From: Cyanophora paradoxa CCMP329
Taxonomy: Eukaryota > Plantae > Glaucophyta
DNA length: 64,000 nucleotides
Assembly (NCBI GenBank): GCA_004431415.1
Contig: QPMI01000655.1
Span: forward strand, 205,157 to 269,156
Direction: 5' to 3'
Part shown: one piece after another, positions 11,653 through 52,762 of the stretch
How the letters are laid out: every line of letters begins with the position of its first letter
How positions within the stretch are numbered: the stretch's first letter is position 1
The notes under the pieces: model-generated
What the model saw: only the letters and a program-made list of their open reading frames with translations
What the model was told of the DNA's origin: nothing
Databases searched by the model: none
Program-made: the position numbers and the translations under genes

Positions 11653-12298
11653 CATTTGATTCCGAAATATACGTAGGATGACGTTTGCGTAGGGTGTGTT
11701 CGGAAGCCAAATATACGTAGGTTGACGTTTCTTTCCGATATCCTATCATGTCACAGTGTTGCCAGCGCTAGCATCCAAGCTTAAGCTTCGATTTGCAAAT
11801 GACGCATGCACAGTGATTGGATCACTGATATTTATCCACAAATGTACACTCTAGATCTGCGCATGCGCCAGCGCTAGCGCTAGCCTGGCAGCTGCACTCT
11901 AAAGCTAGATATACCGATATGCATTAATTTACGTGTATACGTATACGAAATCGAACCATTACAGTACATGTACAGTTGCTAGCACACACTTCCGATCACG
12001 GCCGTTCACGTTCCGTTCATCATGGCATTGGGGTACTATCTTCAAAGAAAACCTACCGTCAAAAAGAAAACTATAGCTAGGCTAACGCGCAACCTAAAGC
12101 TACTAGGCTAGCAAAAACATGATCACGAAGCAGTGCAATCGCGATCGCGAATTCAAAAATGAAATACGCTAGAGCGGGTGCAAAAAAGATGCATCCCATA
12201 TAGCGCTTCGACGGCTCGCCGTCAGTCGTACTAGAGGGCTGTGTGACTGCGCGAGGGCGCAGCGATGCAGCTGGGGTGCAGATCCACAGCCGTGACCG

Positions 12299-22950: not shown

Positions 22951-22956
22951 TACCCC
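22951..22956 (+). repeat. Left target-site duplication TACCCC
   Basis: The same hexamer occurs directly after the right TIR (52757-52762). Confidence 0.9.
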
Positions 22957-23248
22957 ACACATAGGGATACCCCTGATCCAAGCCCTCCGGCCTTCGGCCT
23001 ACAGGCTTGGATCAGGGGTATCCCTATGTGTGCGCGTTTCAGGTACTAGGGTAGTAAGCATTTATTTCAGGTCTTAGGGTATTAATCATGTCTTTTTGGC
23101 ACCAGTATGTTGGCCGCCTCTGGGGTATTAGAAGCTTGGATTCGGCACCAATTAGGCAGGAGAGGCAGGAGGGTTATTTGTAAACTTTCCTATGGATTCC
23201 CCTCTTGTGTGGGATTTTACATATAACCCTCCTGCCTCTCCTGCCTCT
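22957..23248 (+). repeat. Left terminal inverted repeat (~292 bp) containing two hairpins
   Basis: Reverse complement of 52467-52756, with only a few differences in the loop of the inner hairpin. Confidence 0.95.
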
Positions 23249-23257
23249 ATCCATAAT

Positions 23258-23628
23258 TAAGACTGCCAACCATCTCTTCATTTCTTTACGTTTTCTCTTA
23301 AAGAGATATCTTGAATAGTCAGGGGATGGAAGGGGAATGGGAGTGTCTGGTAAAAGGGTGGTTTGAGGGATGGCAGGGGGATGGGATGGATGGCGGAGGG
23401 GATGGCAGGGGGATGGAGGGATGGCAGAGGGGATGGCAGGGGATGGGAAAATGTATGAAATTTGGTTGATTTGTGACGATATCTGGTCAGGGGATGGGAG
23501 GGGGATGGGACTCAGTCAGGGGATGGGACTTTTCTCAGAAAACAAATTTTGTTTTTGTTTTTTGAAATTTTCTATTCGAGTACAAGGGGATGGGTTTCCC
23601 ATCCCCTCATCCCCCCATCCTCCTCTCT
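23258..23628 (+). repeat. G-rich internal direct repeat, copy 1 (GGGGATGG array followed by CCATCCCC array)
   Basis: Aligns by eye with 31001-31355 (taagactgcc...aaagagatatcttgaatagtcagggg...gggacttttctcagaaaa...aggggatgggtttcccatcccc). Confidence 0.85.
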
Positions 23629-23630
23629 GC

Positions 23631-25018
23631 TCAAATCCTCCTCCTTGATCTCGTGGAAATTGCTGGAGCTTCATAGGTCTCCTTTGAATTCGAGAAATCT
23701 CTATACCACCTTACTGCCTCTGCTCCCCCTGCTAATCTCTCTGTTCCCGCCACCCTCAATCTCTCCAACTCTCTCCCTTGTTTCTTCTTCTTCCCTGCTC
23801 TGTCCTCCAATAATGGTTTATCTGGCACGTTTGGCGCCCTCTCAATCCCCTCTCTGGCCAAAAGTCGCTCTGTTCTGGCCTCTTTCTTTGCCTCTTCAAT
23901 GACATTTATTGATGGCGCCTCCAAGAACTCCACGGTTTCCACTTTCTGTAATTCGTAGTGGGCATAAAGTCGATCTATTAGTTTGCCAGAAATGTCCCTT
24001 AGTTTAAATTTGAACCCCTCCACTCCTTCTATTGTGAATATTTCGCGGCTCCAATTATTCCCTTGTTTGGCAAATGGGCTCTTCTCTATTTTAGTTCTCA
24101 CGTGGCTCCCTGCTGGATAGTCTTTTAGATATTCAATTGACTTCATGAATTTCTCGTTTTCTTTTCCGAGTATTAGAGGAACATGTACCTCTGTGGTCTC
24201 TGCTGGTTTCATCCCGTTGCTGAGTGGATGGTATTATTGTAGTTGTAGGCAAAATCTTGGAGCTTGTCGAAAAACTTTACAGTATTATTCGCTATACAAT
24301 ACGAGTTAATTAGCTTCTTTATTGTGCGATTAAAGGCTTCTATTCGGCCTTGGCTATTGTGATCTCCAACCTGCGAAACTTGGTGCTCAATCATCTGGGT
24401 TTCTAAATGGTCTTTAAATACCTTGTTCAGGAATTCGCTCCCAGCATCACTTTGTATCTTCACAATTGGACGAGGGACTTGTTGCTCAAGCTCCTTAAAT
24501 GCGTTCAATGTGCTTTCTGCTGTCTTTCCCCTCATGGGAATTATAAAGCCCAGTCTGGTGGTATTTTCTACAGCTGTGAGGAACGTGTTGTAGCCTTGAT
24601 TCTGTTTGCTGTACGAAGGATAAAAGATTAGGTCTATGGCATAGCAGTCGAGTGGCTGTCTTATTGGGATATAGGCAGTCTTCTTGGCAGATGGGAGGGG
24701 TTTATTTATCTGGTTGATTTCTTGGGCATCATAGAATCTACGGATTGTCTTTCTTGGCACATCTGGAAGCTCTTTGGCCAATGAAGCAAGGCCTTTAAAT
24801 CCTACCTTGGTGTCATAGAATGTCCTTGCTAAGGGATCCAAGTGAGGCACAGCAATGGCAGTTGGGATATCCGCAGGAACTAAAGCTTTGAGGTCACTCT
24901 TTTTCTGAATGCGACCCCTCTCTCCTCTTGAGGGATTGGGATTGGCAATATACTCACATCGTACTCTGTTTGTCTGCGTGTGATCTTTGATGACATCTAT
25001 ATTGGGATTAGAAAGCAA
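23631..25018 (-). CDS. Retroviral-type (rve) Maverick/Polinton integrase; one 1-nt indel near 24212
   Basis: DDE motifs YAIDL, QSDAGSEF, RIEAFNRTI; YNNTIHSATG|MKP is restored by adding one G; C-terminal VR..K..F.K...NWS.EIF.I...ELQKV typical of Maverick integrases. Confidence 0.9.
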
Positions 25019-28000
25019 TCTTTGACATCTTCACATTGAAGGTCTCATTTTCAAGCTTCTTTTGGACAGTCATTTCGATTTGCTTGGGTTTTTGGTGGAG
25101 CACATGGTCTTTATAATCTTGGAAAGACAGATCTGTTTGAATGGTCTCCTTACAAACACCTGCCAGCTTTTTGATTTCCTCATCATCTGTTTTAATGCTG
25201 TAGCATTTCGGCCTCACACCAGCATATTCAGTAATGGTTCTGCCCTCAAACTCATCTTTGAACTTGCCAAGCTCTGTGGGGTGGGTGTCAATGTCTTGTA
25301 GGTCTTTTGCTATAGTTTTCGAATTTATTTGAAGGCAAAGCGAATCTGTATCAGTAAAAAGCAGTTTACAGTCTGGCCATTTCCGCTTGATGGTGTTATA
25401 ATAATAATCAAATAGGCGCAGCTTGGCAAGATCTAAAACAACTGCCCCAATTGCTATGGGCTTATCTAACTTGACATCTTTTTGTAGCATTTCGAAGGCT
25501 ACTGCTGAATCGCTTAGTCTTGTTTCTGCTTTGAGTAGGGGCGATCTGGCGTATTTCATAAATTGCTTTTCGTTGGTGGCAATCTTGACATTAGACCTTC
25601 CTCTCACTTTCTCAATGGTTTTGCCAAAAAGGCTATTGTTCATGATCTTAAAGAAGTCCTTTTCGGGTTTGGAAGGGGCTGCTTTGCGGTTTTGGGCATT
25701 GGATTCGACGTAAGGCTTCATAAAGGCAGCCTGAGTAAATGTTAGCACCCTGTGGATTTTGGTGACCTTTAAGCCTTGCGCTACCATGAATTGGAGCAAA
25801 GGTTTCGACACCACATAATTACAAATGTCTTCGCAGGCTGCTTGTAGTCCATCCTCTGCTCTCTTGATAACAAGAGGTAGCTCTTTGTGGAGTTGATGGA
25901 GGTGCTGGGGATAATGGATGTCAACTTCTAAGATGGCCCCTCTGCTGATGACAGGTCGTAATTTGAGGGTTCTGGGTGCCATTGGAAATTCGAGAGGGGT
26001 AGCTTTTGGGATAGGGCATATCCATATAGGTTATTGGCATCCAAATATATAATGTGGCTGTCCCTTTCCTTTTTGGCATATTTATGATTCATAATCGAAA
26101 GGCCTCCCCTGATCATGCCTTCAACCATGTTGTACATATCAAGGTTGGAAAGAAGCTCGATTTTAGGCTTGGTAATAGATAGCATGCTGTCCACGAAAGC
26201 CCTGGACTTGAGACATAGAGGGCAGCATCCATCCCAAAAGTTTTGTGTGATTTCTGGCGGAAAAGCTGGAACTTTTCCATTAATCCTTCCACGTTCTGGA
26301 CGCCATAATCAATAAAGTTTTTGATGTCAATGAATTTAAAGCAACCCCAAGTGATCGACATGTAGTTGTCAAACGATTTTGCGAGGACTTCCACCCTTTT
26401 TTCGGGATTTAAGGCGACTGCCTTGAATATCTGCGTTCCAGATAGGGACAGATCATTGGTCACTATGGGAATCTTGGTGAGATTGCTGGTGCGTCTGTGG
26501 AGATTACATTTGCGACATGCTGTGCCTACAAAATCGCCAGTTTGGTGGTCGTGATCCCTCACTTTATAATTGTCTTGGGTGAAATCACCTTGGCAGATGT
26601 AGCAGGTTTTAGCAAGGTAATGGGTACGTTTCTGCTCTTTGGTCAGTGACATTGGGATGTTGGTAAATAGGGCTTTGAATAGCTCTGGGGCTGTGCTGTC
26701 GAGGGTACTCAGGAGCTCAAAGATGTTGGAGTGGGTTTTAGTGAGTACTACTCTATTATTATGAAGAGCTGTCAGTGAGATTGATTTGATCTTGAACATA
26801 CCAGAAATATCTGTTTCATAATCGAAATAGCAATAGGCAATCACGGGGAGGAATACAGTCTTTGAGAGATGTTTAAGACCAAATTCAATGAATGTGGGTT
26901 GTTTTGGGGTCTCTCCAGCACTTGTCTTCCAATCCACACAACGTTTGCTTTGAATGTGGGATTGAAGCTTCTCCTCAGTCTTGAAGTGGTTGGAACAGGT
27001 TTTACAGAAATGGAGTCGCTGCTTATCATTTTTAGCTAAGACTCTGGACATGCTGAATATTGTGGTATAATGACTGTTACCATTTTCGTCTGTAATAAGC
27101 AGCAGATCCACTTGGTGTTTCCTGTTCCTTGAGGAGCTGTTGTGGAGTAGATTAATTTCTTCTGTAGAGTTAGAGGGGTCGTAAATATTAACAGAGATTG
27201 CTGGATTGAGATTTTCAAAGAGATCAATAGTATCAGCATCTGCCTTTACAGGAAACTCAATGCCCTCGAAATTTAGTTCTTTTTTGAACCACCTCCTGTA
27301 TTGGGAAGTCTCATTGCGCTTGTGGCTATTTACTTCGTCCTTGTGAATATAAGAAAGGATAGCATACTCAAAGCATCTATTGTCCTTGTTATTAACATTG
27401 ACAATGGCTCGTTTATTTTTGAGCCACTCTGGGAGTGGGATAAAAGCACCTCCTGAGATGGGTTTAAAGGACAGAACAATCACTCTCAAAGCCTCAATGC
27501 TTTGGAGTTTATAGCTGTCTGTGACATTAATTTGCGACTGGCATTCCTTAGCCAATTTCGCAGTTTCTTTAGTGAGGGTTCGAGATCTTGTCATGATAGC
27601 ATAGGTGCTGTAAATGTGCTTGGTAATAAAGTCTCTCGAATTGTTTGCTTTTGAAAAGCGACAGACAAACGTAAAGCGAGTTTTAATCGACATCTGTGAA
27701 TTGATGGCATCTTGGAGCCTTGTGTGGAGTTCCTCAGAGTAGGTGTCTATAAACTCTTGAGTGGTCAGGATCTGGTGGTGAGCCCTGATGGTAAAATCAA
27801 TGTATTTATTATTAAGAGCACGATGTTCATTTATTAAGGTAGTGTATTCATCTCCTCTGACTTGAGTTGTGGTAGTTTGTTCGACTTGGATTTGGCCAAG
27901 GCGATCAGTCTCATCAAGGGTCTCGATTTTCCCTAATAGCTCTCGATTGAGAGCTTGAAGCCCCTTGAGCTTCTTGTTGGTCTGTTTAATATAAGATTCA

Positions 28001-28101
28001 TATTCACTTTCACTGATGGAGTGATTGGCCAGTAAGAACGCCAGATTCCCGAGAATCTTGTCCTGGAGCTCCTTAATTTGGTAGTGGCTGGGGCGGGGCA
28101 T
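25008..28101 (-). CDS. Protein-primed family B DNA polymerase (pPolB) with N-terminal OTU-like, C2H2 and EndoVII-like Zn domains; two 1-nt indels
   Basis: Motifs IRGG, YLDANNLYG, KIMNNSLFGK, FTDTDS, LGKFKDE, PKCYS; N-terminal FIPLPEWLKNKRAIVNVNNKDNRCFEYAI and CYIC..VRDHDHQTG...ACRKCN. Frames join by adding one G at ~26191 and at ~25938. Confidence 0.9.
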
Positions 28102-28540: not shown

Positions 28541-31003
28541 ATGACATCCACCATGTTCACCACCACCGAAATTACTTGTGCCCCCACTGAGGCAACTTTC
28601 AAGAAGCAGCTTCAAAACTTTGACAAGTCTGGCATCATCTCCATGAGCTGGGATGAGGCTAATTGTATCATTCAAAAAGGGAAGCACTGGGTCGAGCATT
28701 TAACCCCTGAACAGCTGACCAGGGTTTATTTGGACTTTGACAGGCTTGTCCCTCTCGAGAATGATGCTTCTATCAACCAAAAAGAAGCTGCTCAAGTTGT
28801 ATTGGATTTGCGCAAACGTCTTGCTGCCTTGTCAGGGGTTGACTTGGATAAAATTGCTGTTAGTGTGAGGCATCGAAGGGTAAAGCTTGTTGATTCAGGA
28901 GAGGTTAAATTCAAGCAATCTGCCCATTTTATTTGGGCAGATCTGGTTATGAAGCATGAAGATATCCCAAATCTACTTGATTCTTGGGGGCTGGTTAGAG
29001 GGGATGATTATGATCCTCAGCCATACAGTTCCACACAAAATATTGTCTGTATCTACAATTGTAAGGATACTGGGCTTGACAAAAGGACCAAAAAGCATGA
29101 TGTTGATATTGATGTGGTCTTCAAACCAGCAATGTACTGCCTTCAAGGAGTCCCCTATAAACACTACTTTGTCCAGTTCTATGAAGCTGGGGCGCAGCTA
29201 CTTCAAATTCAGGAGGGGGGCAAGGCTGTTCCATTCAAGGCTCCTATAGTGGCATCAAACCCCACCTTATCTGGCTTTGACATTCTTAGAAAGGCTGTTA
29301 TGGGGTTGGATGGAAAACGCGCTGATGATAGAAAGGCATGGGTCAATGTTGGCTATGCCATCTGTAATGTTAGCAAAGACATGGAAATCCCAAAGAAACA
29401 GGCCAGAGAACTGTGGCATGACTTCAGCTCTAAATGCTTGGACAAGTATGATGAAGATGGGGCTGACAAAGATTTTGAGAGCATCTGGAACAGCAAGAGA
29501 AAGGGGAGCAAAATCACAATGGGTTCACTCAGGACCTGGCTGAAGCAGGATAATCCAGAACTTTACAAGGTCATGTTTTCAGCACCCCAAGTATCAGGAT
29601 TCTTATTCTTGGATGATGAGGAGGGGGAAGAAAATGGAAAGGTCAACTACAAACTGGATCCAATCCCAGCAAGGGATATATATGAGGTACAAAAACGATA
29701 CTTGGATGCCAGGTGTATCCATTGTACTGATAAAAAGTGTGTGTTTATGTGGAATGACAAAGAAAAATCTTGGGTTCCCCATGACATTGAAAAAGTGAAG
29801 AAAGGTACTTTCCCACACATCCAGTATGATGCTGGGGATGGTAAATATAAGAGTACCTTCAAGAAGTGGATAGAGGATGGAGATAGTACCAGATATGAGT
29901 TTGTGGAGTTCCTTCCACCTCCTGCCAAGCTCCCATGTAAAACAGCCAGTGTCTTCAACCTCTATCAGGGAATGGCAATCGATTATGCTCCATGTGGTGA
30001 TATTCCTGATGTGATCACTGATGAGATGATCAGCCCTTTCCTGAAACATTTGAGTTTAATGTGTGGGGAGAATGAGAAAGCTACAGAGTATGCCTTGAAA
30101 TGGTTTGCTCATATGCTCCAGAGGCCTGGGGAAAAGATTGGGGTTGCCTTGGTTTTCATGGGTGTCCAAGGCACAGGAAAAAATACACTGCTGGACATTT
30201 TTGAGAAAAAGGTGTTGGGCAACAAATTGGCCTTCTCCACATGTGATGGAGAGAATGACCTATTTTCCAGATTCTCACACAACAAAGAGCATAAAATTAT
30301 GGTGACATTGAATGAGGCCAAAGCAAAGGATAACTATGAGTACAGCGAAAAGCTTAAGGATTATATAACAAATGATAAGATCACCATTGAACACAAAGGC
30401 ATTGACAGCTACACAAGCCCCAATTGTGTCCACTTCGTTTTCACAACAAATAGTAATATCCCTGTGAAGGTGGAGTCTGGAGATAGGCGATTTGCCTTCT
30501 TTGAAAGCAGCACAAAACACCAAAGAGATGCTGAGTACTTCAAGCCACTTCATGCTTGGCTTGACAATACTGACAACATCCACATGATTGTCAGGTTCCT
30601 GAAACACGTGGACATCAGCAATGTGGATTGGGATAAAGAGAGGCCATTGAGTGCCAAATATTTCCTTGCTCAACAGGCAACACTTTCACCTATTGAATAC
30701 TTTGCCTACTGGCTAACAGCCAATGGAAAGGTCACCAAGGAGAAATGTAAGACACAAAATCTGATCAGTGCTTGGACTTGGTGGGCAGAGTTTCAGGAGA
30801 AGGCCAAATTCAAGTGTGAGATGAATCAAAAGAAGTTCTATATTGAGATGAGGAATACAGCCTTTATTGAGGTGAAAAAGTGCCAAGGCATCAATTACTA
30901 TCATTTCAAATGGGAGGATATGATGTCTGCCTTCAAGAAATGTAAGCTGGAAGATGATGATAGCATCAAAGAGGAAGAGAATATTCTGATTCAAGATGAT
31001 TAA
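28541..31003 (+). CDS. AEP primase-polymerase + PriCT-2 + D5-like SF3 helicase (820 aa)
   Basis: RVYLDFD, SAHFIW, YDPQPY (AEP); WVNVGYAI..LWHDFSSK..KYD..ITMGSLRTWLKQDNPE (PriCT-2); GVQGTGKN, LNEA, FTTN, DRRF (SF3). Confidence 0.92.
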   Translation: MTSTMFTTTEITCAPTEATFKKQLQNFDKSGIISMSWDEANCIIQKGKHWVEHLTPEQLTRVYLDFDRLVPLENDASINQKEAAQVVLDLRKRLAALSGVDLDKIAVSVRHRRVKLVDSGEVKFKQSAHFIWADLVMKHEDIPNLLDSWGLVRGDDYDPQPYSSTQNIVCIYNCKDTGLDKRTKKHDVDIDVVFKPAMYCLQGVPYKHYFVQFYEAGAQLLQIQEGGKAVPFKAPIVASNPTLSGFDILRKAVMGLDGKRADDRKAWVNVGYAICNVSKDMEIPKKQARELWHDFSSKCLDKYDEDGADKDFESIWNSKRKGSKITMGSLRTWLKQDNPELYKVMFSAPQVSGFLFLDDEEGEENGKVNYKLDPIPARDIYEVQKRYLDARCIHCTDKKCVFMWNDKEKSWVPHDIEKVKKGTFPHIQYDAGDGKYKSTFKKWIEDGDSTRYEFVEFLPPPAKLPCKTASVFNLYQGMAIDYAPCGDIPDVITDEMISPFLKHLSLMCGENEKATEYALKWFAHMLQRPGEKIGVALVFMGVQGTGKNTLLDIFEKKVLGNKLAFSTCDGENDLFSRFSHNKEHKIMVTLNEAKAKDNYEYSEKLKDYITNDKITIEHKGIDSYTSPNCVHFVFTTNSNIPVKVESGDRRFAFFESSTKHQRDAEYFKPLHAWLDNTDNIHMIVRFLKHVDISNVDWDKERPLSAKYFLAQQATLSPIEYFAYWLTANGKVTKEKCKTQNLISAWTWWAEFQEKAKFKCEMNQKKFYIEMRNTAFIEVKKCQGINYYHFKWEDMMSAFKKCKLEDDDSIKEEENILIQDD

Positions 31004-31355
31004 GACTGCCCTCCTTCTACTCATTTTTTCCATTTATCTATAAAAGAGATATCTTGAATAGTCAGGGGGATGGAAGGGGGATGGGACTGTCTGGTAAGGA
31101 GTGGTTTGAGGGGATGGGTAGGGGGATGGGAGGGGATGGGAGGGGGATGGGTAGGGGGATGGGAAAAAAGGAAGGAGGTGGCTGATTTGTGACCATAGCC
31201 AGTCAGGGGGATGGGTAGGGGGATGGGAGTCAGTCAGGGGGATGGGACTTTTCTCAGAAAAATAATTTTGTTTTTGTTTTTTGAAATTTTCTAATCGAGT
31301 TCAAGGGGATGGGTTTCCCATCCCCCCATCCCCCTATCCCCCCATCCCCCTCTCT
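31001..31355 (+). repeat. G-rich internal direct repeat, copy 2
   Basis: Begins at the helicase stop codon; same anchors as 23258-23628. Confidence 0.85.
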
Positions 31356-32293: not shown

Positions 32294-32447
32294 TGTATAT
32301 ACCATAATGATATATGTATATGATATATTATGATGTCACATGACATATATATATAACATAGCTTTCCGGACTCGCCGCGTCATGGCGATCACGGCGCTAT
32401 AGTTTTTACCAAAACTTGTTTTTTTTTCATATATATCATATACATAT
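32294..32447 (+). repeat. 154-bp AT-rich foldback unit, copy 1
   Basis: Near-identical to 33917-34069; perfect 17-bp internal inverted repeat (32312-32328 / 32431-32447). Confidence 0.9.
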
Positions 32448-32457
32448 GTACGTTCGC

Positions 32458-32604
32458 GCGTACTGAGCCACGGTACGCACAGGGGCCTGCGTACTGCGCT
32501 ACGGTACGCACAGTGGCTTGCGTACTGCGCTACGGTACGCACAGTGGCTTGCGTACTGCGCTACGGTACGCACAGTGGCCTGCGTACCAGCTAAAGTACG
32601 CACA
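32458..32604 (+). repeat. 31-bp tandem repeat, ~5 copies (gcgtactgcgctacggtacgcacagtggctt)
   Basis: Period 31 read directly; each unit carries a tgcgtac...gtacgca dyad. Confidence 0.9.
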
Positions 32605-33916
32605 TTAAATCTTATAAGACCATATAAGATTTTGAAAAAGAACAAGATCCGTGCTCCTGCGGAGCACTAAGTACGGCGAAGCCTCGCGGACGCCCTCGCG
32701 GTTGTCACAGTAGGCCTATAGGGCACTCAGCGACTGGCCAGCGGCCTGGCCGATCGCGAACAGGTTTCTGGCTGGAAGCTGGCTGGCTGACGGCCAGTCC
32801 AGCTACCGCTGGCCGGCTAGAGGAATATAACTAGAGGAATATTAATGTACTGAGGAAATAAAGGGAGGCCGGAGCAGGTTGAGATTAGAGGAGATGAATT
32901 ATATATAATATTGTTGAGAGGGAGGCCCGGGAGGGGCAAGGTTCTCGCGGCCAGGCGCATGCACAGAGCTTGCGAATCGCTTAAACAGAATCTTGAATGC
33001 ATATAGCTATAGCATCGATGTGCGGGGCTGCGGAGCTCGAGGCGAGGGCGCGCGGAAAGATGTGCAGGTCCATGCAGGATCGAATTTTCGGGGTCGGCTG
33101 GGTCCTCGCGGCCCGTCGCATACGCAAAGCGTGCGGAAGACTTTGCCTACATCTTAAATGCTTATGCTATCGTTCCGCGCATGCGCCGCGGCGTGGGCGC
33201 GCGGAAAGATGTCAGGGCGCGTGCAGGATCGAATTTTGGCCGTCGGGTACCTTCCTGCGCTGTTCCGGCTCCGAAAAGCGGATTTCGGGGTGCGCAGGCC
33301 CTGCTATGTCCATGCGCGCCAGTACGCATCGATTGCGCGCGTCGCGGGACCGGGCGGGACCGGCTAGCGCTGGATCAAATTTTCGGCCGACTCTTCGCAC
33401 TGGAGCGTCGACGGCGCTTGAAATCGAGCTTGCGGCGATGCGCTCGCCCTCGCGCGGCATTCTGTATCGTTCTGGGGCGTCCCTGGCGCGATTTCGTCGC
33501 GGGACCGGGCGGGACCGGGTCCCACCTTCTGACTCGGACTGCATTTGTCGGAGGTTAAGTACCGGAATTGATCCAGAGGGAAATTCGATTTTCGCGCGAC
33601 GCCCACGGGCGAGCGGTCGTCTTAGGGGAGCCACGACGCTAAAAATGGATCTAGAGAGGTCTGTGGGGGTTAGGGTAGCTGAGTCATTAGCGGCAATCGC
33701 GTCCGTGTCGAGGCAGAATTAATAATTCGTCCTCGAGGGAGTGCGACGCGGAAATTATTTAGCAGGGGGGATCTTGAGTGGAAAAAAAGGTTAAAAAAGG
33801 AATTTATATCGGCGGTTTTTGGGTTTGAGAAAGAGGCTTCGCCTGATTCTTATAAAGACCATATAAGATATAAGACAACTCTTATAAGACCTTATATGAC
33901 TTAAATTTGAGCGACT

Positions 33917-34069
33917 TGTATATACCATTATGATATATGTATATGATATATCATAATGTCACATGACATATATATATAACATAGCTTTCCGGACTCGCCG
34001 CGTCATGGCGATCACGGCGCTGTAGTTTTTACCAAAACTTGGTTTTTTTCATATATATCATATACATAT
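33917..34069 (+). repeat. 153-bp AT-rich foldback unit, copy 2
   Basis: Direct repeat of 32294-32447; followed by CCTACC/GGTAGG dyad motifs (34079-34212). Confidence 0.9.
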
Positions 34070-34645
34070 ATATGAGCCAGCCTACCGCAGTGGTAGGCGA
34101 GCCCGTGTGTCTACCGCAGACCGGTAGGCACAGTCCGCCGGCGGTAGAACAGTAGGGCCCTGCCTACTCGCCTACCGGTAGAGCCCTCGCGCCTACCGTA
34201 CAGCAGTAGGCGGCTTTTTCCTTATAGAGCTCTATAAGAATGTTTCTAAAACTTTCAATTAGAGCCACTTAAGGAACTTCAAACGCGAATATCTCGGCAC
34301 CAGATTGGCCGTTTTGAGCGCTCTTTTTTTCCTGTGAAGCTCTCATCAAGCTCTACGCAGAGCCGCCCCTTTCGCATTTTTATGCTGCCTAAAAGTAGAT
34401 TATTATGACAACTCCCATCCATACTCGCCTTGTAGAGGTGTCCTTTGAACTCTCATATTTGGCGCTGACGTCTCCAAGCTCAGAACTGAGTAACTCCATA
34501 CATCGCCTCTCTATAGAACTGTACAACCTTGGTCATCGAATAGCCCCCTGTCTCCACATATCAAAGCAGCTTTACAAAAAATATCAAACGATCTCCTCAT
34601 GCTTGGAAATGAGATTAGCCCCTTCCCTGATGGCAGATAATGTGT

Positions 34646-35968: not shown

Positions 35969-36751
35969 TTATAGACCGCGTTTATATCGCATTAACTTAT
36001 TACTATGAACTTGGCTTTTCACTTCTTTGCGCCCCTCTTCTTTCTCTGGTGGTTTAAGCTCATCTTCTTTCTTCTTTGGCTTCCTGTGGAACCGTGGAAA
36101 TGGGAAATCTTTGACCAAATCCGCTTTATCTACGAAATATTTCACAGAATAATCGGCGGATGACCAAATTAGAAACTGATAGGAATGAACGTACTCTTCA
36201 AACATTTTATAGAAAACATCTTTGTCCCGCATTATATTATATTCTTCCTCAATGGCTTCAAGCTCCTTTCTATTGGCAGCGCTTAGGAACATAGCATAAT
36301 CTGAGTTGACGCGAATGGTCGATGAGACTTTCCTTAGCTTTTGTGTGATACAGATAATAGATATTTTCAAATGTCTGCCCATAGAGTACAATTTGTTGAT
36401 TATTTTATCGCGAGTGAGATCGACCAAGTCATTATCAATTAGATCGTCCAGTACAACTAAGAGTTGATTAATCGGCTCTCCTTTTTCTATTTTCTGTTGT
36501 CGATCTTCCAGAACCTTTTCAATGTAAGGAGCATCCCATTTGCCAAGCTGAACACTTGCTACATTGTTCCAAAAGTTGTTAAAAGCCGTTCCACTGATTA
36601 CAAGGACGACATCAATCTTTTTGGCATCATGAAGCTGCTTGAGCCAGTACTTGACAGCCTCTGATTTACCAGTAGCAGATTTGCCAATTGCCAAAACGCG
36701 GAAAGGGGGGTTTATCATCTCACCAGCATTAAATTCGTCCAAGTCGCCCAT
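35969..36751 (-). CDS. A32-like (FtsK/HerA) genome packaging ATPase
   Basis: Walker A GKSATGKS, Walker B LLVVLDD, GRHLKISIICITQ, IRVNSDY. Confidence 0.93.
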   Translation of the reverse strand: MGDLDEFNAGEMINPPFRVLAIGKSATGKSEAVKYWLKQLHDAKKIDVVLVISGTAFNNFWNNVASVQLGKWDAPYIEKVLEDRQQKIEKGEPINQLLVVLDDLIDNDLVDLTRDKIINKLYSMGRHLKISIICITQKLRKVSSTIRVNSDYAMFLSAANRKELEAIEEEYNIMRDKDVFYKMFEEYVHSYQFLIWSSADYSVKYFVDKADLVKDFPFPRFHRKPKKKEDELKPPEKEEGRKEVKSQVHSNKLMRYKRGL

Positions 36752-37865: not shown

Positions 37866-39236
37866 CTACAGATTAATTTTTCGGAGCCCGTCCTTGTCCA
37901 AAATGAGGAACGTGTGCATGAGAGCGCGAACATTGACATCAATTGCCTTGTCAGTGGGCATGTAGAGAGTGAGGAATGAAGATGAAGAATTGGTCAGGTC
38001 AACATAGCCAGACTGGGCAATATTGCGAATCGCCTTCTCACCGTCAAGACAGAAACTCATACCCGAAAGAACATAGCGATCAGCAACCTTATCCATATTA
38101 GAGCATTTGAAGACATCAGCAATCAGCTCAGCACCCTTGAGCAGTGGAATAGGCTCAGTGGCATAGAGACGTTGACCATTAATTTCCACAGTGAAAGTAA
38201 TATCTTTGGAGTTGGAGTAGGTCTTGAGAACACTGTGGGAACCATTAGCTTTGTCAACAGTAGCGTTATCACGAACTGAAACAAGCAGAGCATAAACGAG
38301 ACCTGAGATTTGGGAGAGGTTAACTCGATTGGGTTGGGCACCACCCTTGGCTTTCATATCACTGACATCCACAAATCCAATATCCAGAGCAGGGATAGCC
38401 ATGCCAGTTGTCTTTACCTTCTCAATAACAGTAGCGAAAAGCTCATCAGACACATTAACAGCATACATATAAAGGCGAGGAGAAGTAATTTTAATTTCAA
38501 CGTTTGGCGCACCAAGATTGAAAGTGGTGATGTTTTGGCCAACATGTGCCAGCACAGATTCAGCAGGTGCGACGCCAAGCCCATCGTCCTTGTCCCCATC
38601 AATGGCTGTGTCCCCAGCCTTAGGAAGAGTACGACCACCATAAGAAGTCTCAACATAACCCTTCCCTACATCCTTGAACCAAACAGTTACTACCATTTCA
38701 CCAGACAGAGCACCAAGAGGTAGGTAGTGGTTTAGCCAAGGCACAGGAATTTCAACAAAGAATGAGCCACCAAGTCGGTTGGTTCCATGGGCGGGGATGC
38801 CGTGAAGCATGCCCATTGACCGCTTCTTTTTGGCAAGCTGATCCTCACTATAATAGACAAGAGGGAAATGAGCAAGGAAATCAGAAGGGATATGGTAGGT
38901 GTATGACCCATAGGTAATTTCAAGTCGCTGAACCAAAGCACCAACTGGGCGAGTATACCCATTTCGAACAAGATCAGCATCACCAAAAGTGATAGCTGGA
39001 AGGTCGAAGGCAAGTTCAAGTTTGCCACAGAAATTGTAGCGAGGGAGTTTGAATGAAATGCGATTTCCAACACTATTTTCAAAAGTATTGCTCGGGTTCA
39101 CAACAACAAGAACGGGCTTAGACTTGGATTCAAGACCAAGCATTAGGGAGTTATCCAGAAAGAAGGCCTTGGCCTCCTCTGGGGTTGTTAGGGCTTCTTT
39201 CAACGAAAGGCGCTGGAGGGTCGACGTAATATCCAT
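37866..39236 (-). CDS. Major capsid protein (double jelly-roll, PLV-type), 456 aa
   Basis: Size, position between ATPase and penton, and DJR-like strands ISFKLPR..KLELAFDLP, LVQRLEITYG, FFVEIPVPW..YLPLGAL..VTVWFK. Confidence 0.78.
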   Translation of the reverse strand: MDITSTLQRLSLKEALTTPEEAKAFFLDNSLMLGLESKSKPVLVVVNPSNTFENSVGNRISFKLPRYNFCGKLELAFDLPAITFGDADLVRNGYTRPVGALVQRLEITYGSYTYHIPSDFLAHFPLVYYSEDQLAKKKRSMGMLHGIPAHGTNRLGGSFFVEIPVPWLNHYLPLGALSGEMVVTVWFKDVGKGYVETSYGGRTLPKAGDTAIDGDKDDGLGVAPAESVLAHVGQNITTFNLGAPNVEIKITSPRLYMYAVNVSDELFATVIEKVKTTGMAIPALDIGFVDVSDMKAKGGAQPNRVNLSQISGLVYALLVSVRDNATVDKANGSHSVLKTYSNSKDITFTVEINGQRLYATEPIPLLKGAELIADVFKCSNMDKVADRYVLSGMSFCLDGEKAIRNIAQSGYVDLTNSSSSFLTLYMPTDKAIDVNVRALMHTFLILDKDGLRKINL

Positions 39237-41265: not shown

Positions 41266-42810
41266 ACGCACCTGTAAAATCGACTCTCATTGTGGGAGCA
41301 TTCACATAGACAAGGGGATAAATGCGAACATACTTGATTCTCAAAGAGAACCCTACGTAGAAAGCATCCTTGATGGTGAGAGGGTAACCATTTAATAAAG
41401 CTATATCGCCGGAATTATTAGCATTGTTTATATTCTCACAAACAAATGTTTTGTTCTGCCCTTCTGCTCGAATAAAAGACCAGTTGACCCCATTAGTTGA
41501 TGTAGCCACACTGAAAGTCTTTATAAAAGCATTGGTGTCCCTGACCCATAGGCAACCACTGAAGAGAGTTCAAAAGTGTATGGGAAAGCAACTTGAAGGT
41601 ACTCAGTGGGGGTCTCCCATATCTGCTCTGGAGCAAATGCCCCAGCTTCCCAGCCAAATGATGAAGGTCGAGCCATGTGGGGCTCTTTACCTATCACAGA
41701 GGAGGAGGCAGTAAAGGCATCATCAGCAAGTTTGTACCAATTAGCATCCAAAGGTGGTGACAGGGTGAGAGTGGAAGAGATGTATGCTTTTGATGGGTTC
41801 TTTAATTCATAGTTTGCTACCAGCAAATCGCAAAGCTTATTAATCATGCTGTTGTTTGCTGCTATGTATGTCTCGGTGAACGAAAGCATGTCAGGGATTT
41901 TAGAGGTATCATCAAGGGACCTGACTATGTGATTTGGAAGAGGAACAGATAGCCTATAGTACCTTCCATAATCCTGATCGTAGTTATAAGGTAGCAACTC
42001 CTCCATCTTGTCAAGAGCCGACAGCTCACTTGCTGCCATGAGCATGTTAATCAATGGGCTTCCATCTGTTGAGGCAATCCATGAGAGAATGCCCCAACTG
42101 TTCACAGTCTCATAAGCATAGCCGAAATAATCAGACTCTAAATATGGGTCTACCTCACCACAAGAGATGCTTATAACTATAATGTCATCATCATCACTGT
42201 AAATCTTCCTCGCATGGCTATAGCCACACACGCTGGGGTTATTGTTTCCTGAGATAGCACCATCAATAAGGCAAGCAGTTATCCCATGATTGAAGTCAAC
42301 TATACTCACAGGTGAAAAGTAGGTGGGAGCAGCAGAGGTAGCCCTTGCTGCTATTTTACAGGGCAGAAAGTTGTAGTTGTTATCGTTTGTGATGAATATA
42401 GGTTTCATGTACTGAGTATCAAACGAAGTAATAACAATGTCCTTCAAGGAATCTTGAATGAGGGATTCGCCAGTAACAGAATTGATTGCGCTTTCTAAAG
42501 GAGCCACATCATACTTGGTGTTAAAAAGGGCATTTTCGATTATATTTCGAGGATTTGCGAAAATCAAGGGCAGCTGAGTGAGGTATATATTATGTAAATC
42601 ATTGGCTGTGAGTTTGGGTTCGCCTGCCCTATCTGGATGCCTAATGTTCAACCCAATGGCAATGATCCCACCTGTGGAAGTTCCACTAACAAGATCCACA
42701 AGATCTATTATACGCCTGCCAGTTCGATTTTCGATTTCTTTAAGCAGTCTGGTAATGATAATGCCCCTTGCTCCGCCTCCTGACAATGCTAAAACGACCT
42801 TGAGAGGCAT
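41255..42810 (-). CDS. Patatin-like phospholipase fused to a C-terminal F5/8 type C (discoidin) domain; one 1-nt indel near 41540
   Basis: GGGARG, GTSTG, ATSAAPTYF, IDGA. Adding one G gives YLQVAF..YGSGDTNAFIKTFSVATSTNGVNW..KYVRIYP..MRVDF (discoidin pattern). Confidence 0.85.
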
Positions 42811-45800: not shown

Positions 45801-48800
45801 TTGTGGAAGACCCTTCAAACCCAATACCAAGAGATGATAATAAACTACTCATCAAGACTCAGGAACTACAAGTAACAGGGATGAACTTAGCAACCACCAA
45901 TGGTGTAGCAGCATTACTTACAGAATTCACAACCTCGAATGTAGTAGACGGATGGTTAAATAAATACACCACTTCTAATGTTGTGGAGGGTTGGATAGCA
46001 GATTCAGAAGCGTTGTTAGAGAACTACTTACCATTAACAGGTGGAACAATCACAGGAAATCTTAACGTGAGCAATCAAGGAAACACTGACAGCAAACTCA
46101 AAATATATGAGAACACTTTCAAATTGGATTATTTGGATGTCTCGACGTTTAATGTCCTTTCAGTTCTTAATGTTTTCGTTTGGGTCAGAGCAAGGGACAA
46201 CATGAAAGATGGAACGATAGTGAGTGGACTTGGAAACGGAGCAGGAGACGTTTGGTTTGATAATAACCCTGAGACACCGAATTTTCTTCTTGGGTTTGGT
46301 AATGTTGCTGGGAACTCGACGCAAATTAAGAATAATGGAGGTCCTAACAACAAACCTTATTTTAATTCGTATCCTACCATTAACTTCAACTTTTCAGCCT
46401 ATAATACGTGGGGGGCTGAGTGTGAACTTTTCATGAGCCAAACTTCACAGCAACATTTAACTGTGTTTTTCGTCGCGAAATTCACAGATACAGCACCTCC
46501 AAATGTAGAGAACGTTTTATCTTTGAGATATGGAACCACAAATTGGAGCATCAATAAATGGAACAATGGTGCGACTTGTTATATTCAGGTTTCTAATGGG
46601 GTTGGAGCAGCAGGATTAGGTGAAAGCACTTCACCAAGTAACGCAAAAGCAGAAATTACATACTCCGAAATGACGACATGGACACTCTACGAAGTAACAG
46701 TCTCTCCTTCCACTGTTACATTTGGGATCAATGGTAGCAATAGAAGTGTTGCAAATGTTACAAACATGTTCCCCAATAACCTTGTTACTGAAAGTCGTAT
46801 TGGCTCTTCAACCTCCAAACAAGATTTAGCAGAGCTAATAGTGATTATTAAACCAACAACAGAAATCGTCAAAAATAACGTGCGAAGTTATCTCCTTCAA
46901 AAATACGGTTATCCTGAGCCATTAGACAATCCTTTCTCCAGTGACCCTAACAAACTTCTTCTACAAACAAACAGCCTGAGAGTTACAGGAAGTCTTATAG
47001 CCAACAACCTCCAATATACAGCACCAGCACCAGGAGGTGGTTTTATTATCAAAGATTTCCAAACAAGTTCAAGCCTTCAAGAGGCAGAAATAACTGCCAT
47101 CAATGCCCAGATTACACAGATACAAGAAAGCATAGACAGTATCAATACCAATATAGAACCTTTAACCACTTCCAATGTAGTTCACGAATGGGTAGCTCCA
47201 CTGACTGCTTCCAATGTAGTTCAGGAATGGATAGCCCCATTGACTGCTTCCAATGTAGTTCACGAATGGGTAGCTCCACTGACTGCTTCCAATGTAGTTC
47301 AGGAATGGATAGCCCATTGACTGCTTCCAATGTAGTTCAAGAGTGGATAGCCCCACTGACTGCTTCCAATGTAGTTCAGGAATGGATAGCCCCATTGACT
47401 GCTTCCAATGTAGTTCACGAATGGGTAGCTCCACTGACTGCTTCCAATGTAGTTCAGGAATGGATAGCCCATTGACTGCTTCCAATGTAGTTCAAGAGTG
47501 GATAGCCCCACTGACTGCTTCCAATATAGTTCAAGAGTGGTTAGTTCCCAAGGCTGATACAGAAACCGTAAATTCCCAAATAGCCCTGCTGACGTCTTCC
47601 AACACAGTTCAGGGCTGGTTAATCCCAAGGCTGATACAGCAGCTGTAAATTCCCAAATAGCCCTGCTGACATCCTCCAACACAGTTCAAGCTTGGTTAGC
47701 CCCAAAGGCTGAGACTGCCTTTGTTAACTCCCAAATAGCCCTGTTGACCTCTTCCAACACAGTTCAGGGCTGGTTAGCTCCCAAGGCTGATACGGCTACA
47801 GTCAATACCCAAATATCTCCACTCACATCCTCAAATATAGTTCAGAGCTGGTTGAGTGACTATTTGCCCAAATCAGGAGGGACTATCACATCCAATCTTT
47901 CTGTTTCGGGCAGCCTTTACACAAATAACATAAGAAGTGGTAGCCAATCCATAGACTTGGTTCTAATCCAAAACTTGATACCTCCCCTGGAACGCCTTTC
48001 AGCATACACAAATCCACTGTCTACACCAAACTGTGTATTCCACTGGTATCCTTTAAATGAGCCATCAGGCACAGCAATACCAGAACTTACCAATAGGGCA
48101 TCTGGGCAACCCAATGCTTTGCCTTCTTGGCTAAAAGTGTCAACTGGGGCCTTCGTGCTGAGTGCCTCTTTAATCAATGGGAATAAACTATTTGGGGTTA
48201 CAGGGGTAACAACCTATTTGGCGCAACCAAGTCCCTACATAGCAAACCCATTCAGCAATGGGATGACAATGTTCTCTGTGAGAAGGAACTATTCAACCTC
48301 TGCCAGTCCTTCAGCTCATCTAAACATTTACAGTGACCCTACATCAAGTAGAAATATAAGATTCGGAACCACAGGAGAAACATCTATTGGAATAACGAGT
48401 TATCAAACAAATGGAGTGTATCAAGCAACTTCCACAGCATCCACAGCCACGAGCTTTTACAACAATTGGACTTTGTTTGACTATCATGTCACTTCAACCG
48501 TAACCACAGTAGGCATCAATAGTGTTGATTTATCCCCCACATTATCTGGCAACTACAATTTAAGTGAAGTGGCAAATCTCACAATCCAAAAGATTGGGAT
48601 AGAAAGCTTCCAAGGACAAATGGCAGAAATAATCATTTACAATCGGGCTCTATCAGCTGATGAGAAGGGCTTTATCCGCTACTATCTATCACAAAAGTAT
48701 GGTCTGAGCAACCCAATTCCCCAAATCAGCCCAGCCTACTCCTCAAATGAGTTCCTACAGGTGTCCACCCCCAATCTTATACTTAATAAGCTGACTGTGA

Positions 48801-50290: not shown

Positions 50291-51136
50291 ATGGGCGAAT
50301 ATAATCGAGTCCAATTACCAGTTTACGCATTGGGGAGTCCAGCAATTCATTTTAGACAACATGAAGTGTCTGATGAAGTTCGTGGAATGGAATCAACAGA
50401 ACGGGCAAATTCAGGTAATGCTTTTGACAAGAATAGTATGATTCGTGTAAAAGAACTGAGAGCTGATAAAAATTCGGGAGTGGTGAAAACAACTCAACTA
50501 CTTGTAACAAATGCGAATTTTCAATCAGCAAATGGACAACCTGATGCGTATGGTGTAGATATCAAAGCATTTGAATTTGACAATACAAGGGCTGCTGCTG
50601 TTATAAGATCAGGAGGAGCAATAATTGGTGGTGGCTGTAGAGTATCGGGAATGCTTGGCTCTTCTGCTGCCTTTAATGATTTTCCGGACACTTTACCTGA
50701 ACATGCTGATAATCCCCAAAGAATTCGCATGTTTCTTCCATGCGGGGATTCCCCGTATGCTTTTGGTATCATTAGAGCTAATGTAAATACGCAAAATGCC
50801 ACTCAACCCCAAGGTATTGCCGGACCATGGAAATTGGCTAATCAGCTTCTACCAAAGGCAATGTATTCTATATGTCGCTCTCAGAATGGAGGATTAGAAG
50901 GTTATACTTTCTTTGTTCAAGCAGTAGGCCATGGTGGGCGTGGATGGATCACAAGAAATCCTGCTACACAACCAAACAGTTTCGATTTTTGGGCATCAGA
51001 GGTAGGGGGTTATGATATTTTAATTTTTGGATATCGTAATGATGAAGCAGCATGGGCTGTTGCCAACTGTATAAATCCTGATTCGCAAGTATCGAATTTC
51101 TATAATGAACCATTCCCAAATGATCCCATTCCGTAA
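50291..51136 (+). CDS. Hypothetical virion/fibre-associated protein A (281 aa)
   Basis: Paralog of 51156-52001: ESTE, ELR.DKN.GVVKTT.LLVTNANF, RSGGA.IG.G.RV.G. Confidence 0.75.
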   Translation: MGEYNRVQLPVYALGSPAIHFRQHEVSDEVRGMESTERANSGNAFDKNSMIRVKELRADKNSGVVKTTQLLVTNANFQSANGQPDAYGVDIKAFEFDNTRAAAVIRSGGAIIGGGCRVSGMLGSSAAFNDFPDTLPEHADNPQRIRMFLPCGDSPYAFGIIRANVNTQNATQPQGIAGPWKLANQLLPKAMYSICRSQNGGLEGYTFFVQAVGHGGRGWITRNPATQPNSFDFWASEVGGYDILIFGYRNDEAAWAVANCINPDSQVSNFYNEPFPNDPIP

Positions 51137-51155
51137 TTATGTTTCAGTATATTAA

Positions 51156-52001
51156 ATGGCAGCACCAGCACCACCAGAGCGCATTTTAACAGCGCAACTA
51201 TCATTAGCTGCTCCAGCTAACCACGTCTTACAGCATGCTATTATTGATAATATTGATGGTCTCGAATCCACAGAGATAGCCCCAACCCTAAATACTTTTG
51301 GGGACACTCACATGCTAAGACTAAGAGAATTGAGATGTGACAAAAATAATGGGGTCGTTAAAACTACTAAACTTCTTGTAACAAATGCGAATTTCAACGC
51401 ATTTCATGGGGATCCTGATAGTTACAATGATGATAACAAGGTAACCAATTTTGCCTACGAAGCAAGAAGGGGAGCAATTAAATGTAGGTCAGGAGGTGCC
51501 TATATTGGAGATGGTTTAAGGGTTGGTGGAATTATTGGAGCGCCTTTATTAGTAAATGATCAACCCAATCCAGATGATGTGAATACAAGAATCAGGACAT
51601 ATGTCCCGGGAATGAATGAGCCTTACATTATCAAAATCAACACAATCATTATCAACCTTCAGACTGCTGTCATTGATGTTATAGAGCCTTTGGGAAATCA
51701 CTATAGATATACTGAGACGTTGCCTGCTGATATTTACGCATTATGTAGAAGAACAGATGGAGCAAGACCCCGAATTACTGTCCAAGTAGTCCCAGTAGAT
51801 AATTTCGGACTTGCTTTCCATTCACTGCCACTTCTTGACACACAAGATGACCAATATATTATAAGAGCTACCCAGCAAGGGGCTTACACAGTGATTATGT
51901 ATGCTGAAAGGAATGATGAAATTGCCAGAGGAAATAGATTTGGTCAATATCTAACCACAAATTTATACAATCCCATTGGAGGAAGTGATCCTTTGCCTTA
52001 A
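51156..52001 (+). CDS. Hypothetical virion/fibre-associated protein B (281 aa)
   Basis: Tandem paralog of 50291-51136. Confidence 0.75.
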   Translation: MAAPAPPERILTAQLSLAAPANHVLQHAIIDNIDGLESTEIAPTLNTFGDTHMLRLRELRCDKNNGVVKTTKLLVTNANFNAFHGDPDSYNDDNKVTNFAYEARRGAIKCRSGGAYIGDGLRVGGIIGAPLLVNDQPNPDDVNTRIRTYVPGMNEPYIIKINTIIINLQTAVIDVIEPLGNHYRYTETLPADIYALCRRTDGARPRITVQVVPVDNFGLAFHSLPLLDTQDDQYIIRATQQGAYTVIMYAERNDEIARGNRFGQYLTTNLYNPIGGSDPLP

Positions 52002-52046
52002 ATCTCCAGCAATCTTATTGTTTTTTCTATTCTATTGGTAATCAAA

Positions 52047-52445
52047 ATGCTTGCCAAAGGTTACCATGTGATGCTTGATTTCCAATTCAGCCAACCAATT
52101 AGAGACCATGTGGAGCTCTCTAAATGGCTCATGAATGTCAGTGAAGACATCATCAAGAAATATGGAATACAGGTTGTCCACAAACATGCTGAGATTTTTG
52201 ATGGCACCAAATCACCCCCTGGATTTGCCCAAGTATTATTATTAGATGAAAGCCATTGCTCTGCTCATTGCTACAGTGATCAAGGCATGTTGGCAATAGA
52301 TATATTCAGCTGTGGAAAACAGGCAGAAAGGAATACAAGTTTAATTGCTTTTGAGCTGGAGGAGGAGATAAACAAATATGCTGTTGGATTTGGGGCAGTA
52401 ATTAAAAAGAGATTACACCATGAGAAGAGGAGATTTGAGGTTTAA
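52047..52445 (+). CDS. speD: Prokaryotic-type pyruvoyl S-adenosylmethionine decarboxylase proenzyme
   Basis: GYHVMLDF..., PPGFAQVLLLDESHCSAHCY..GMLAIDIFSCG, with the E|SH self-cleavage site and terminal CG motif. Confidence 0.85.
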   Translation: MLAKGYHVMLDFQFSQPIRDHVELSKWLMNVSEDIIKKYGIQVVHKHAEIFDGTKSPPGFAQVLLLDESHCSAHCYSDQGMLAIDIFSCGKQAERNTSLIAFELEEEINKYAVGFGAVIKKRLHHEKRRFEV

Positions 52446-52466: not shown

Positions 52467-52756
52467 AGAGGCAGGAGAGGCAGGAGGGTTATATGTAAAA
52501 TCCCACACAAGAGGGGATTCCTTAGAAGTTTACAAATAACCCTCCTGCCTCTCCTGCCTAATTGGTGCCGAATCCAAGCTTCTAATACCCCAGAGGCGGC
52601 CAACATACTGGTGCCAAAAAGACATGATTAATACCCTAAGACCTGAAATAAATGCTTACTACCCTAGTACCTGAAACGCGCACACATAGGGATACCCCTG
52701 ATCCAAGCCTGTAGGCCGAAGGCCGGAGGGCTTGGATCAGGGGTATCCCTATGTGT
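52467..52756 (-). repeat. Right terminal inverted repeat (~290 bp)
   Basis: Reverse complement of 22957-23248; termini 5'-ACAC...GTGT-3'. Confidence 0.95.
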
Positions 52757-52762
52757 TACCCC
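52757..52762 (+). repeat. Right target-site duplication TACCCC
   Basis: ...ccctatgtgt|tacccc; matches 22951-22956. Confidence 0.9.

Follow-up and report, generated by a model that had tools for sequence, protein, structure and literature searches.

A Polinton-like virus integrated in the Cyanophora paradoxa genome carries a gene that likely encodes a pyruvoyl-dependent arginine decarboxylase

Introduction

Single polyamine enzymes are common in viruses, and the small PLP-independent family is the commonest of them in phages, as surveyed in PMC9992855. According to the same survey, an unrelated arginine decarboxylase (ADC) is kept in 40 of the 40 chlorovirus genomes considered, while the next enzyme is complete in only 28. 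Within the AdoMetDC-fold family the substrate has switched at least four times, as described in PMC10407285. That source reports one highly supported clade of arginine decarboxylases (SpeDA) uniting Gimesia, Solirubrobacter, MGII/Poseidonales archaea, Nannochloropsis, and Tribonema. The six members that were assayed all decarboxylate arginine but neither ornithine nor lysine; three of them were also tested for complementation of E. coli speD, and none succeeded (PMC10407285). In MGII archaea the genes are laid out as speB-speDA-speY (PMC10407285), and SpeY consumes agmatine (PMC13625781). For the AdoMetDC of Thermotoga maritima, PMC10407285 describes Ser, His, and Cys residues that are essential for processing and catalysis.

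Polinton-like viruses (PLVs) are usually described through their capsid, replication, and integration modules. The present analysis concerns a window of 64,000 nucleotides of the C. paradoxa CCMP329 assembly (contig QPMI01000655.1), in which a PLV carries a small decarboxylase gene close to its right end. The intact gene likely encodes a pyruvoyl-dependent L-arginine decarboxylase, which would convert host arginine to agmatine and would represent cargo exchanged with giant viruses.

Organization of the integrated element

The element spans positions 22957-52756 (29.8 kb) and has a GC content of 43%, against 73–74% in the flanking host DNA. At each end lies a terminal inverted repeat (TIR), some 290 nt long, that bears a terminal hairpin. 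The outer arms, at 22957-23187 and 52526-52756, are 231 nt long and 100% identical, and additional arms of 59 nt at 23190-23248 and 52467-52525 are 97% identical. Repeat comparison delimits the left TIR at 22957..23248 and the right one at 52467..52756, the latter with a 75-nt hairpin at its end. Outside them lie the two copies of a 6-bp target-site duplication (22951..22956 and 52757..52762). An rve-type integrase is present as a 273-codon open frame, counted from stop to stop (24212..25030, minus strand; Pfam rve, E 5.5e-6, under the cut-off), followed by a protein-primed type B DNA polymerase (pPolB; 25008..28101, minus strand) that occupies three reading frames in this assembly. The pPolB frame is interrupted at about 26.1-26.2 kb and again at about 25.9-26.0 kb. 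These interruptions may be assembly errors, because read contigs reveal missing bases elsewhere in the window (52525, 52988, and 52999); decay is the other possibility. Additionally, the element encodes an 820-aa primase-helicase with PriCT-2 and DUF5906 domains in Pfam (28541..31003, plus strand) and an A32-like packaging ATPase (35969..36751, minus strand; Pox_A32, 49.6 bits). Taken together, the TIRs, the 6-bp duplication, the ATPase, the integrase, pPolB, and the primase-helicase identify an integrated PLV, which is the context that the preliminary description of this DNA had supposed.

The putative major capsid protein (456 aa; 37866..39236, minus strand) was assigned from atlas features, which reach 0.97-0.98 to NCLDV-type capsid clusters at a low recognition value. 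It has no Pfam match, and P0301 (58%) was the sole sequence relative found. Long fibre-like proteins are also encoded by the element. Tandem repeats of 39 nt (13 aa) at 47120-47850 join two long Laminin-G-like fibre ORFs with the frame broken by one-base slips, and the two ORFs may be a single gene. A second non-core enzyme besides the decarboxylase is a patatin-like phospholipase recognized by Pfam (41521..42810, minus strand), which sits on the opposite strand within the structural region. Directly upstream of the decarboxylase, on the same plus strand, are two tandem 281-aa paralogs that are 36% identical to each other and have no family match (50291..52001). Many diverged copies of these paralogs, and deletions across them, occur in read contigs of the host species. 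Apart from the decarboxylase, no polyamine enzyme, including spermidine synthase, was found among the element ORFs scanned (in 4, 16, and 5 window regions, which take in part of the short or overlapping ORFs).

The ratio of observed to expected CpG is 0.51 in the element, 1.1 in the host flanks, and 0.8-0.9 in free small-virus contigs. Within 28957-30956 of the element it falls to 0.10, and the decarboxylase gene contains no CpG at all, with TpG and CpA at 1.5. This depletion fits an exposure of the element to CG methylation by the host.

Some further structural features were observed. The left sub-terminal region (23253-23623) is directly repeated about 7.7 kb further inside (30996-31342; 81-93% identity in blocks), and the two copies bracket the integrase, pPolB, and primase-helicase as if these were a swappable replication module. 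The 1.6-kb segment at 32294-34085 is GC-richer and CpG-normal, carries 133-nt direct repeats (96%) at its borders as well as a 31-nt tandem array, and is possibly a nested insertion. In the host flank, positions 5997-17820 form a large imperfect palindrome with arms of about 5 kb (98-99% identity in blocks) and a centre near 11.9 kb.

The decarboxylase gene and its product

The decarboxylase ORF (52047-52445, plus strand) runs from ATG to TAA over 399 bp and encodes 132 aa; an alternative in-frame TTG start at 52035 would add 4 aa. The product matches Pfam PF02675 (AdoMet_dc) at 45.6 bits (E 9.7e-12), above the cut-off of 25 bits. Against NCBIfam TIGR03330, the equivalog profile of the B. subtilis-type AdoMetDC, it reaches 50.1 bits, under the cut-off of 75.65. 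In a pairwise alignment with the T. maritima AdoMetDC, Glu68-Ser69, His74, and Cys89 correspond to Glu62-Ser63, His68, and Cys83. The processing Ser, the His, and the Cys are invariant in 23 of 23 aligned sequences, and a single motif family covers all 109 homologs that a protein search returned. The AlphaFold2 model has a pLDDT of 96.2. When compared with the PDB by Foldseek, its top five matches are the class 1b AdoMetDCs of T. maritima and Aquifex (E 9e-8 to 2e-7, TM 0.67-0.70).

Hence the gene is real and intact, and its product has the class 1b AdoMetDC fold. On the basis of profiles, alignment, model, and trees it is annotated as a class 1b pyruvoyl decarboxylase proenzyme, predicted to be of the SpeDA type. 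The preliminary description had already recognized this fold family, with the failure of a profile search named as a refuting outcome, and had called the gene intact and the last one before the right TIR. Each of these points agrees with the data: PF02675 is matched above its curated cut-off, structure comparison leads to the same class, the 132-aa frame has no internal stop, and the stop codon of the gene lies 21 nt ahead of the TIR.

Copies of the gene in the host species

Sequence words of the region were present at half or more in 18 of the 24 listed read runs, all under a single species label. The depth of the contig with the gene exceeded that of the host flank (650 vs 37 in run X4 and 1502 vs 110 in run X6), which hints that the gene is multicopy in the host species, depth not being equal to copy number. 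Three of three DNA-type runs held the gene intact, with no indels in the ORF. Two further runs that cover parts of the gene and were taken as possible RNA were not used, as they may be DNA.

Copies of the main form differ from the window at 2-5 sites; two of the four listed changes are silent and the other two alter variable N-terminal residues. A diverged paralog contig of run X6, covering the active site, has 12 differences in 78 nt, and the five of these that are listed, in three codons, are all silent. From the intact copies and the silent changes of the diverged paralog, the gene is apparently maintained. In one of four runs (X4), a contig joins 52003 to 52606 and skips the gene, with 30 letters on its short side, and one sibling element appears to be without the decarboxylase gene. 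The search for the gene in sibling elements, which had been proposed earlier, therefore gave a divided answer: the gene seems to be multicopy, and one X4 contig skips it.

Substrate of the enzyme

The gene can be placed with the SpeDA arginine decarboxylases because of its phylogeny and the gene neighbourhoods of its relatives. Maximum-likelihood trees were computed with IQ-TREE from 47-48 of 218 trimmed sequences, picked to span a larger FastTree. With 48 sequences and 128 columns, the clade of the PLV gene was split from five phage SpeD outgroups at 99.8/99; with 47 sequences the split from the phage SpeDs had a support of 91.4/97. The outgroup was made up of phage proteins only, SpeDC, the other SpeDA clades, and the AdoMetDCs of HaV and YSLPV lying outside the set. 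The assayed SpeDA proteins are likewise absent from the trees, and the clade is identified by organism labels and synteny. In these trees the PLV gene has a long branch and is nested among Poseidoniales, Planctomycetota (Symmachiella and Rubinisphaera clusters), and a chrysophyte protein of Chromulina. Its protein shares 40-44% identity with MGII genes, compared with 20-24% for the validated AdoMetDCs of S-PM2, P2559S, and phiYS40, and it falls outside the group formed by the latter, for which outgroups were few.

The neighbourhoods of the relatives point in the same direction. GTDB yielded 345 relatives, of which the best 80 were considered; apart from a single one with the label Yoonia they are archaeal (79), and 33 of the archaeal ones bear the name MGII/Poseidoniales. 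A speY-like (DHS-like) gene adjoins 77 of these 80 and a speB-like (agmatinase-family) gene adjoins 21, the neighbour families having been verified by Pfam on a subset (DS on four, Arginase on three). Similarly, 72 of 80 metagenome loci have a speY-like neighbour and 11 a speB-like one. Five of five MGII MAGs, which are incomplete genomes, contain one SpeD homolog apiece, and spermidine synthase was found in none of them. Judged from these comparisons of sequence, arginine is quite probably the substrate of the PLV enzyme.

SAM is an unlikely substrate by comparison. A true AdoMetDC (SpeD) would supply decarboxylated SAM (dcSAM) for host spermidine, or would drain SAM and weaken host DNA methylation. 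The Pfam family and the fold do match AdoMetDC, and class 1b AdoMetDCs that stand alone and have been validated are known from Algavirales viruses (PMC9992855). The CpG-poor composition of the element would suit a methylation-related role; however, CpG depletion does not bear on the substrate of the enzyme. Against this reading also stand the score below the TIGR03330 cut-off, the low identity to the validated AdoMetDCs together with the position outside their group, and the relatives that adjoin speY and are without spermidine synthase. Moreover, Pro71 of the Thermotoga enzyme is Ser in the PLV protein, and none of 109 homologs in one set and of 144 in another has Pro at this site, although the validated AdoMetDC of phiYS40 also lacks it. 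At the site of Thermotoga Pro51 the PLV protein does have a proline (Pro57). A 'gamma' proline is conserved in AdoMetDC according to Fig. 8 of PMC10407285, and Pro71 and Pro51 are both conceivable as its site.

The label SpeD is thus probably wrong for this gene, even though the headline of the preliminary description (AdoMetDC/SpeD) was right as to the fold family. The caution given there about homologues with ornithine or arginine as their substrate was well placed. The phylogenetic comparison suggested there with phage, giant-virus, and bacterial SpeD separates the gene from phage SpeD and joins it to the Poseidoniales/Planctomycetota/chrysophyte group (99.8/99), with sisters in giant viruses. 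With the placement in SpeDA, two of the proposed functions lose ground: a SAM drain countering methylation silencing by the host becomes unlikely, and the supply of dcSAM for spermidine is undercut. A boost of polyamines remains a plausible role, by a different step, namely from arginine to agmatine.

Relatives in giant viruses

The protein nearest to the PLV decarboxylase is P0001 (66%), from a contig of 800 bp whose context is uninformative. The next relatives are 44-52% identical and include genes on three giant-virus contigs, L084, L086, and L088, all of which carry Erv1. L084 also has an NCLDV major capsid protein, RNase III, D5 helicase, AEP, and mRNA triphosphatase, and L088 has D5. On L084 (10001-10387) the decarboxylase is tail to tail with Erv1, and likewise on L086 and L088. 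The three genes are candidate giant-virus pyruvoyl arginine decarboxylases, and the accessible text of PMC9992855 makes no mention of them.

The PLV gene is sister to the giant-virus genes with moderate support (IQ-TREE 86.5/96 and 84/95, FastTree 0.75), and an exchange of the gene with giant viruses is likely. The direction of transfer is inferred from the terminal, optional position of the gene in the element. Phage and plasmid collections contained only distant SpeDs (below 60% and E 2e-5 or weaker), and the top matches in BFVD reached only 14-22%.

A second small-virus lineage

Single-protein scans of IMG/VR with the decarboxylase, the capsid protein, the upstream 281-aa protein, and P0003 recovered no sibling elements. 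Alignment scans of the same resource retrieved contigs L001-L003 and L176-L178. Among these, L001 and L002 were rejected as sibling elements for being phage-like contigs, and L003 was set aside for its weak match of 29 residues. The 70-kb phage-like contig L001 has an MGII-type member of the SpeDA-type clade at 9986-10363.

The contigs L176 (18.9 kb) and L177 (18.0 kb) encode a decarboxylase of the same family (L176:1539-1994 and L177:2289-2750; Pfam AdoMet_dc, 43.5 and 44.1 bits). They also encode an A32 ATPase and capsid-sized ORFs of 470 aa, and L177 has a DUF5906 helicase; on L176 there are two tandem capsid-like paralogs. None of the contigs with the 27 relatives of the capsid candidate is longer than 18.9 kb. 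The candidate showed no PDB profile match and no match to the capsid of the window or to an NCLDV capsid, and its single-sequence fold had a pLDDT of 34.5. No match was found between the penton-like proteins either. These two contigs are accordingly termed PLV-like only, with candidate capsids.

Their decarboxylases are 32-33% identical to that of the window and group with a gene on L178, a viral contig of 53 kb whose type is uncertain (99.9/100). A single clade of small-virus decarboxylases was rejected (AU p ~0.001), and because of this test the L176/L177 copy is regarded as separately derived. About nine context-less proteins (P0032-P0036, P0042, P0044, P0047, and P0084) match the L177 decarboxylase at 73-90% identity.

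Proposed role and alternative explanations

By analogy with its family, the proenzyme would cleave itself between Glu68 and Ser69 into chains of 68 and 64 residues, and Ser69 would give rise to the pyruvoyl group with the assistance of His74 and Cys89. When the element is active, the mature enzyme would decarboxylate arginine to agmatine independently of PLP. Host enzymes would then take agmatine to putrescine and further to spermidine or homospermidine; they are invoked for these steps because the element yielded no partner enzyme. The probable benefit is an added supply of polyamine on which viral translation and the handling of DNA could draw, reached by a small PLP-independent entry that bypasses the ornithine decarboxylase of the host. 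The gene itself would behave as swappable cargo next to the right TIR.

The same activity might instead serve interference, with agmatine or the depletion of arginine hampering a co-infecting giant virus or the polyamine control of the host. Such a function would suit the effect that agmatine can have on animal cells, where it suppresses ornithine decarboxylase as well as the uptake of polyamines, and also the element's lack of a downstream enzyme among the ORFs scanned. In addition, several PLVs parasitise giant viruses, as stated in 10.64898/2026.10.13.758929. The nearest homologs, however, are on giant viruses themselves and so hint at an advantage for viral replication, and interference is considered an improbable purpose of the enzyme.

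It would be slightly more surprising if the gene were a neutral passenger, acquired at the genome end and propagated together with the element while serving no purpose at present. The X4 contig that skips the gene suggests that siblings can be without it. Intactness is a weak argument when the copies of the main family are nearly identical, and half of their four listed changes are non-synonymous. On the other side, the catalytic positions are all kept at an identity of 52% or less to the nearest relatives with context, the diverged paralog is silent at all listed sites, and the family also occurs in a second, unrelated small-virus lineage.

Phages often have SpeDC, an ornithine decarboxylase that yields putrescine itself and so would need no partner (PMC9992855, PMC10407285). 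Such an activity, or action on another basic substrate, is very improbable for the PLV protein, which matches none of the four diagnostic residues of SpeDC (Gln, Thr, Phe, and Tyr, placed by a reading of the alignment in Fig. S5 of PMC10407285), and SpeDC is described there as a clade of its own, apart from the Gimesia/Poseidonales clade.

With arginine decarboxylation as the preferred reading, a wider scenario can be proposed, which is possible although somewhat short of probable. PLV-type viruses would have captured a PLP-free arginine decarboxylase of 130-150 aa from larger viruses at least twice, giant viruses would possess a SpeDA subfamily that has gone unreported, and in protists the flux from arginine to agmatine would be recurrently selected as a viral lever, either feeding replication or competing with a helper giant virus. 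If true, a polyamine enzyme maintained in two unrelated small-virus lineages, with its closest relatives in giant viruses, would mean that PLVs also steer host metabolism. SpeDA, for which assays so far cover prokaryotes, two algae, and marine phages, would furthermore gain eukaryotic viruses as carriers. Labels of 'SAM decarboxylase' on viral genes of the SpeDA-type clade are likely wrong.

Comparison with known systems

A literature search, in which few subscription papers were covered, found no report of AdoMetDC or arginine decarboxylase in PLVs. The main texts of three PLV papers (PMC10120064, PMC12220804, and 10.64898/2026.10.13.758929), as far as accessible, mention no decarboxylase or polyamine gene, and their supplementary tables may list some. 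In the accessible text of PMC11633385, the sole decarboxylase mentioned is a phosphatidylserine decarboxylase, and in PMC9992855 virophages are named in the reference list alone. The locus can therefore be viewed as a known enzyme subfamily in a vehicle for which no prior report was found, with arginine decarboxylase, rather than SpeD, as the most likely identity of its product.

Metabolic cargo in PLVs has a precedent, because ferredoxins were reported in PLVs of cryptophytes (PMC12220804); these elements resemble the present one as endogenous PLVs with cargo of a metabolic type. With regard to the enzyme, the AdoMetDCs of T. maritima and of Algavirales (HaV01 and Yellowstone Lake phycodnavirus 2; PMC9992855) share the short prokaryotic-type proenzyme, and the latter also the carriage by a virus. 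The PLV model has a TM-score of about 0.7 to 1tlu/1vr7. The identity to these AdoMetDCs is about 20-25%, and the PLV protein has Tyr-Ser-Asp in place of Trp70-Pro71-Glu72 and Ala in place of Ser55. The Algavirales carriers are giant viruses, whereas the present carrier is a 30-kb PLV, in which the enzyme is not accompanied by a spermidine synthase.

The SpeDA of pelagiphage HTVC201P and the ADC of chlorovirus PBCV-1, as described in PMC9992855, are further parallels, being arginine decarboxylases encoded by viruses that often rely on the host for the later steps; for the PLV this activity is predicted. The HTVC201P enzyme differs in its separate origin near SpeDC and in its bacterial hosts, and that of PBCV-1 is an ODC-derived PLP enzyme with another fold. 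The closest counterpart is SpeDA of the Gimesia/Poseidonales/Nannochloropsis clade (PMC10407285), which has the same fold, the same catalytic Ser, His, and Cys, and the same host lineages in its clade. The 40-44% identity of the PLV protein is to MGII genes that have the layout of speB, the decarboxylase gene, and speY. In contrast to these systems, the PLV gene stands alone in a eukaryotic virus, with neither speY nor speB adjacent, and its activity as an arginine decarboxylase is a prediction.
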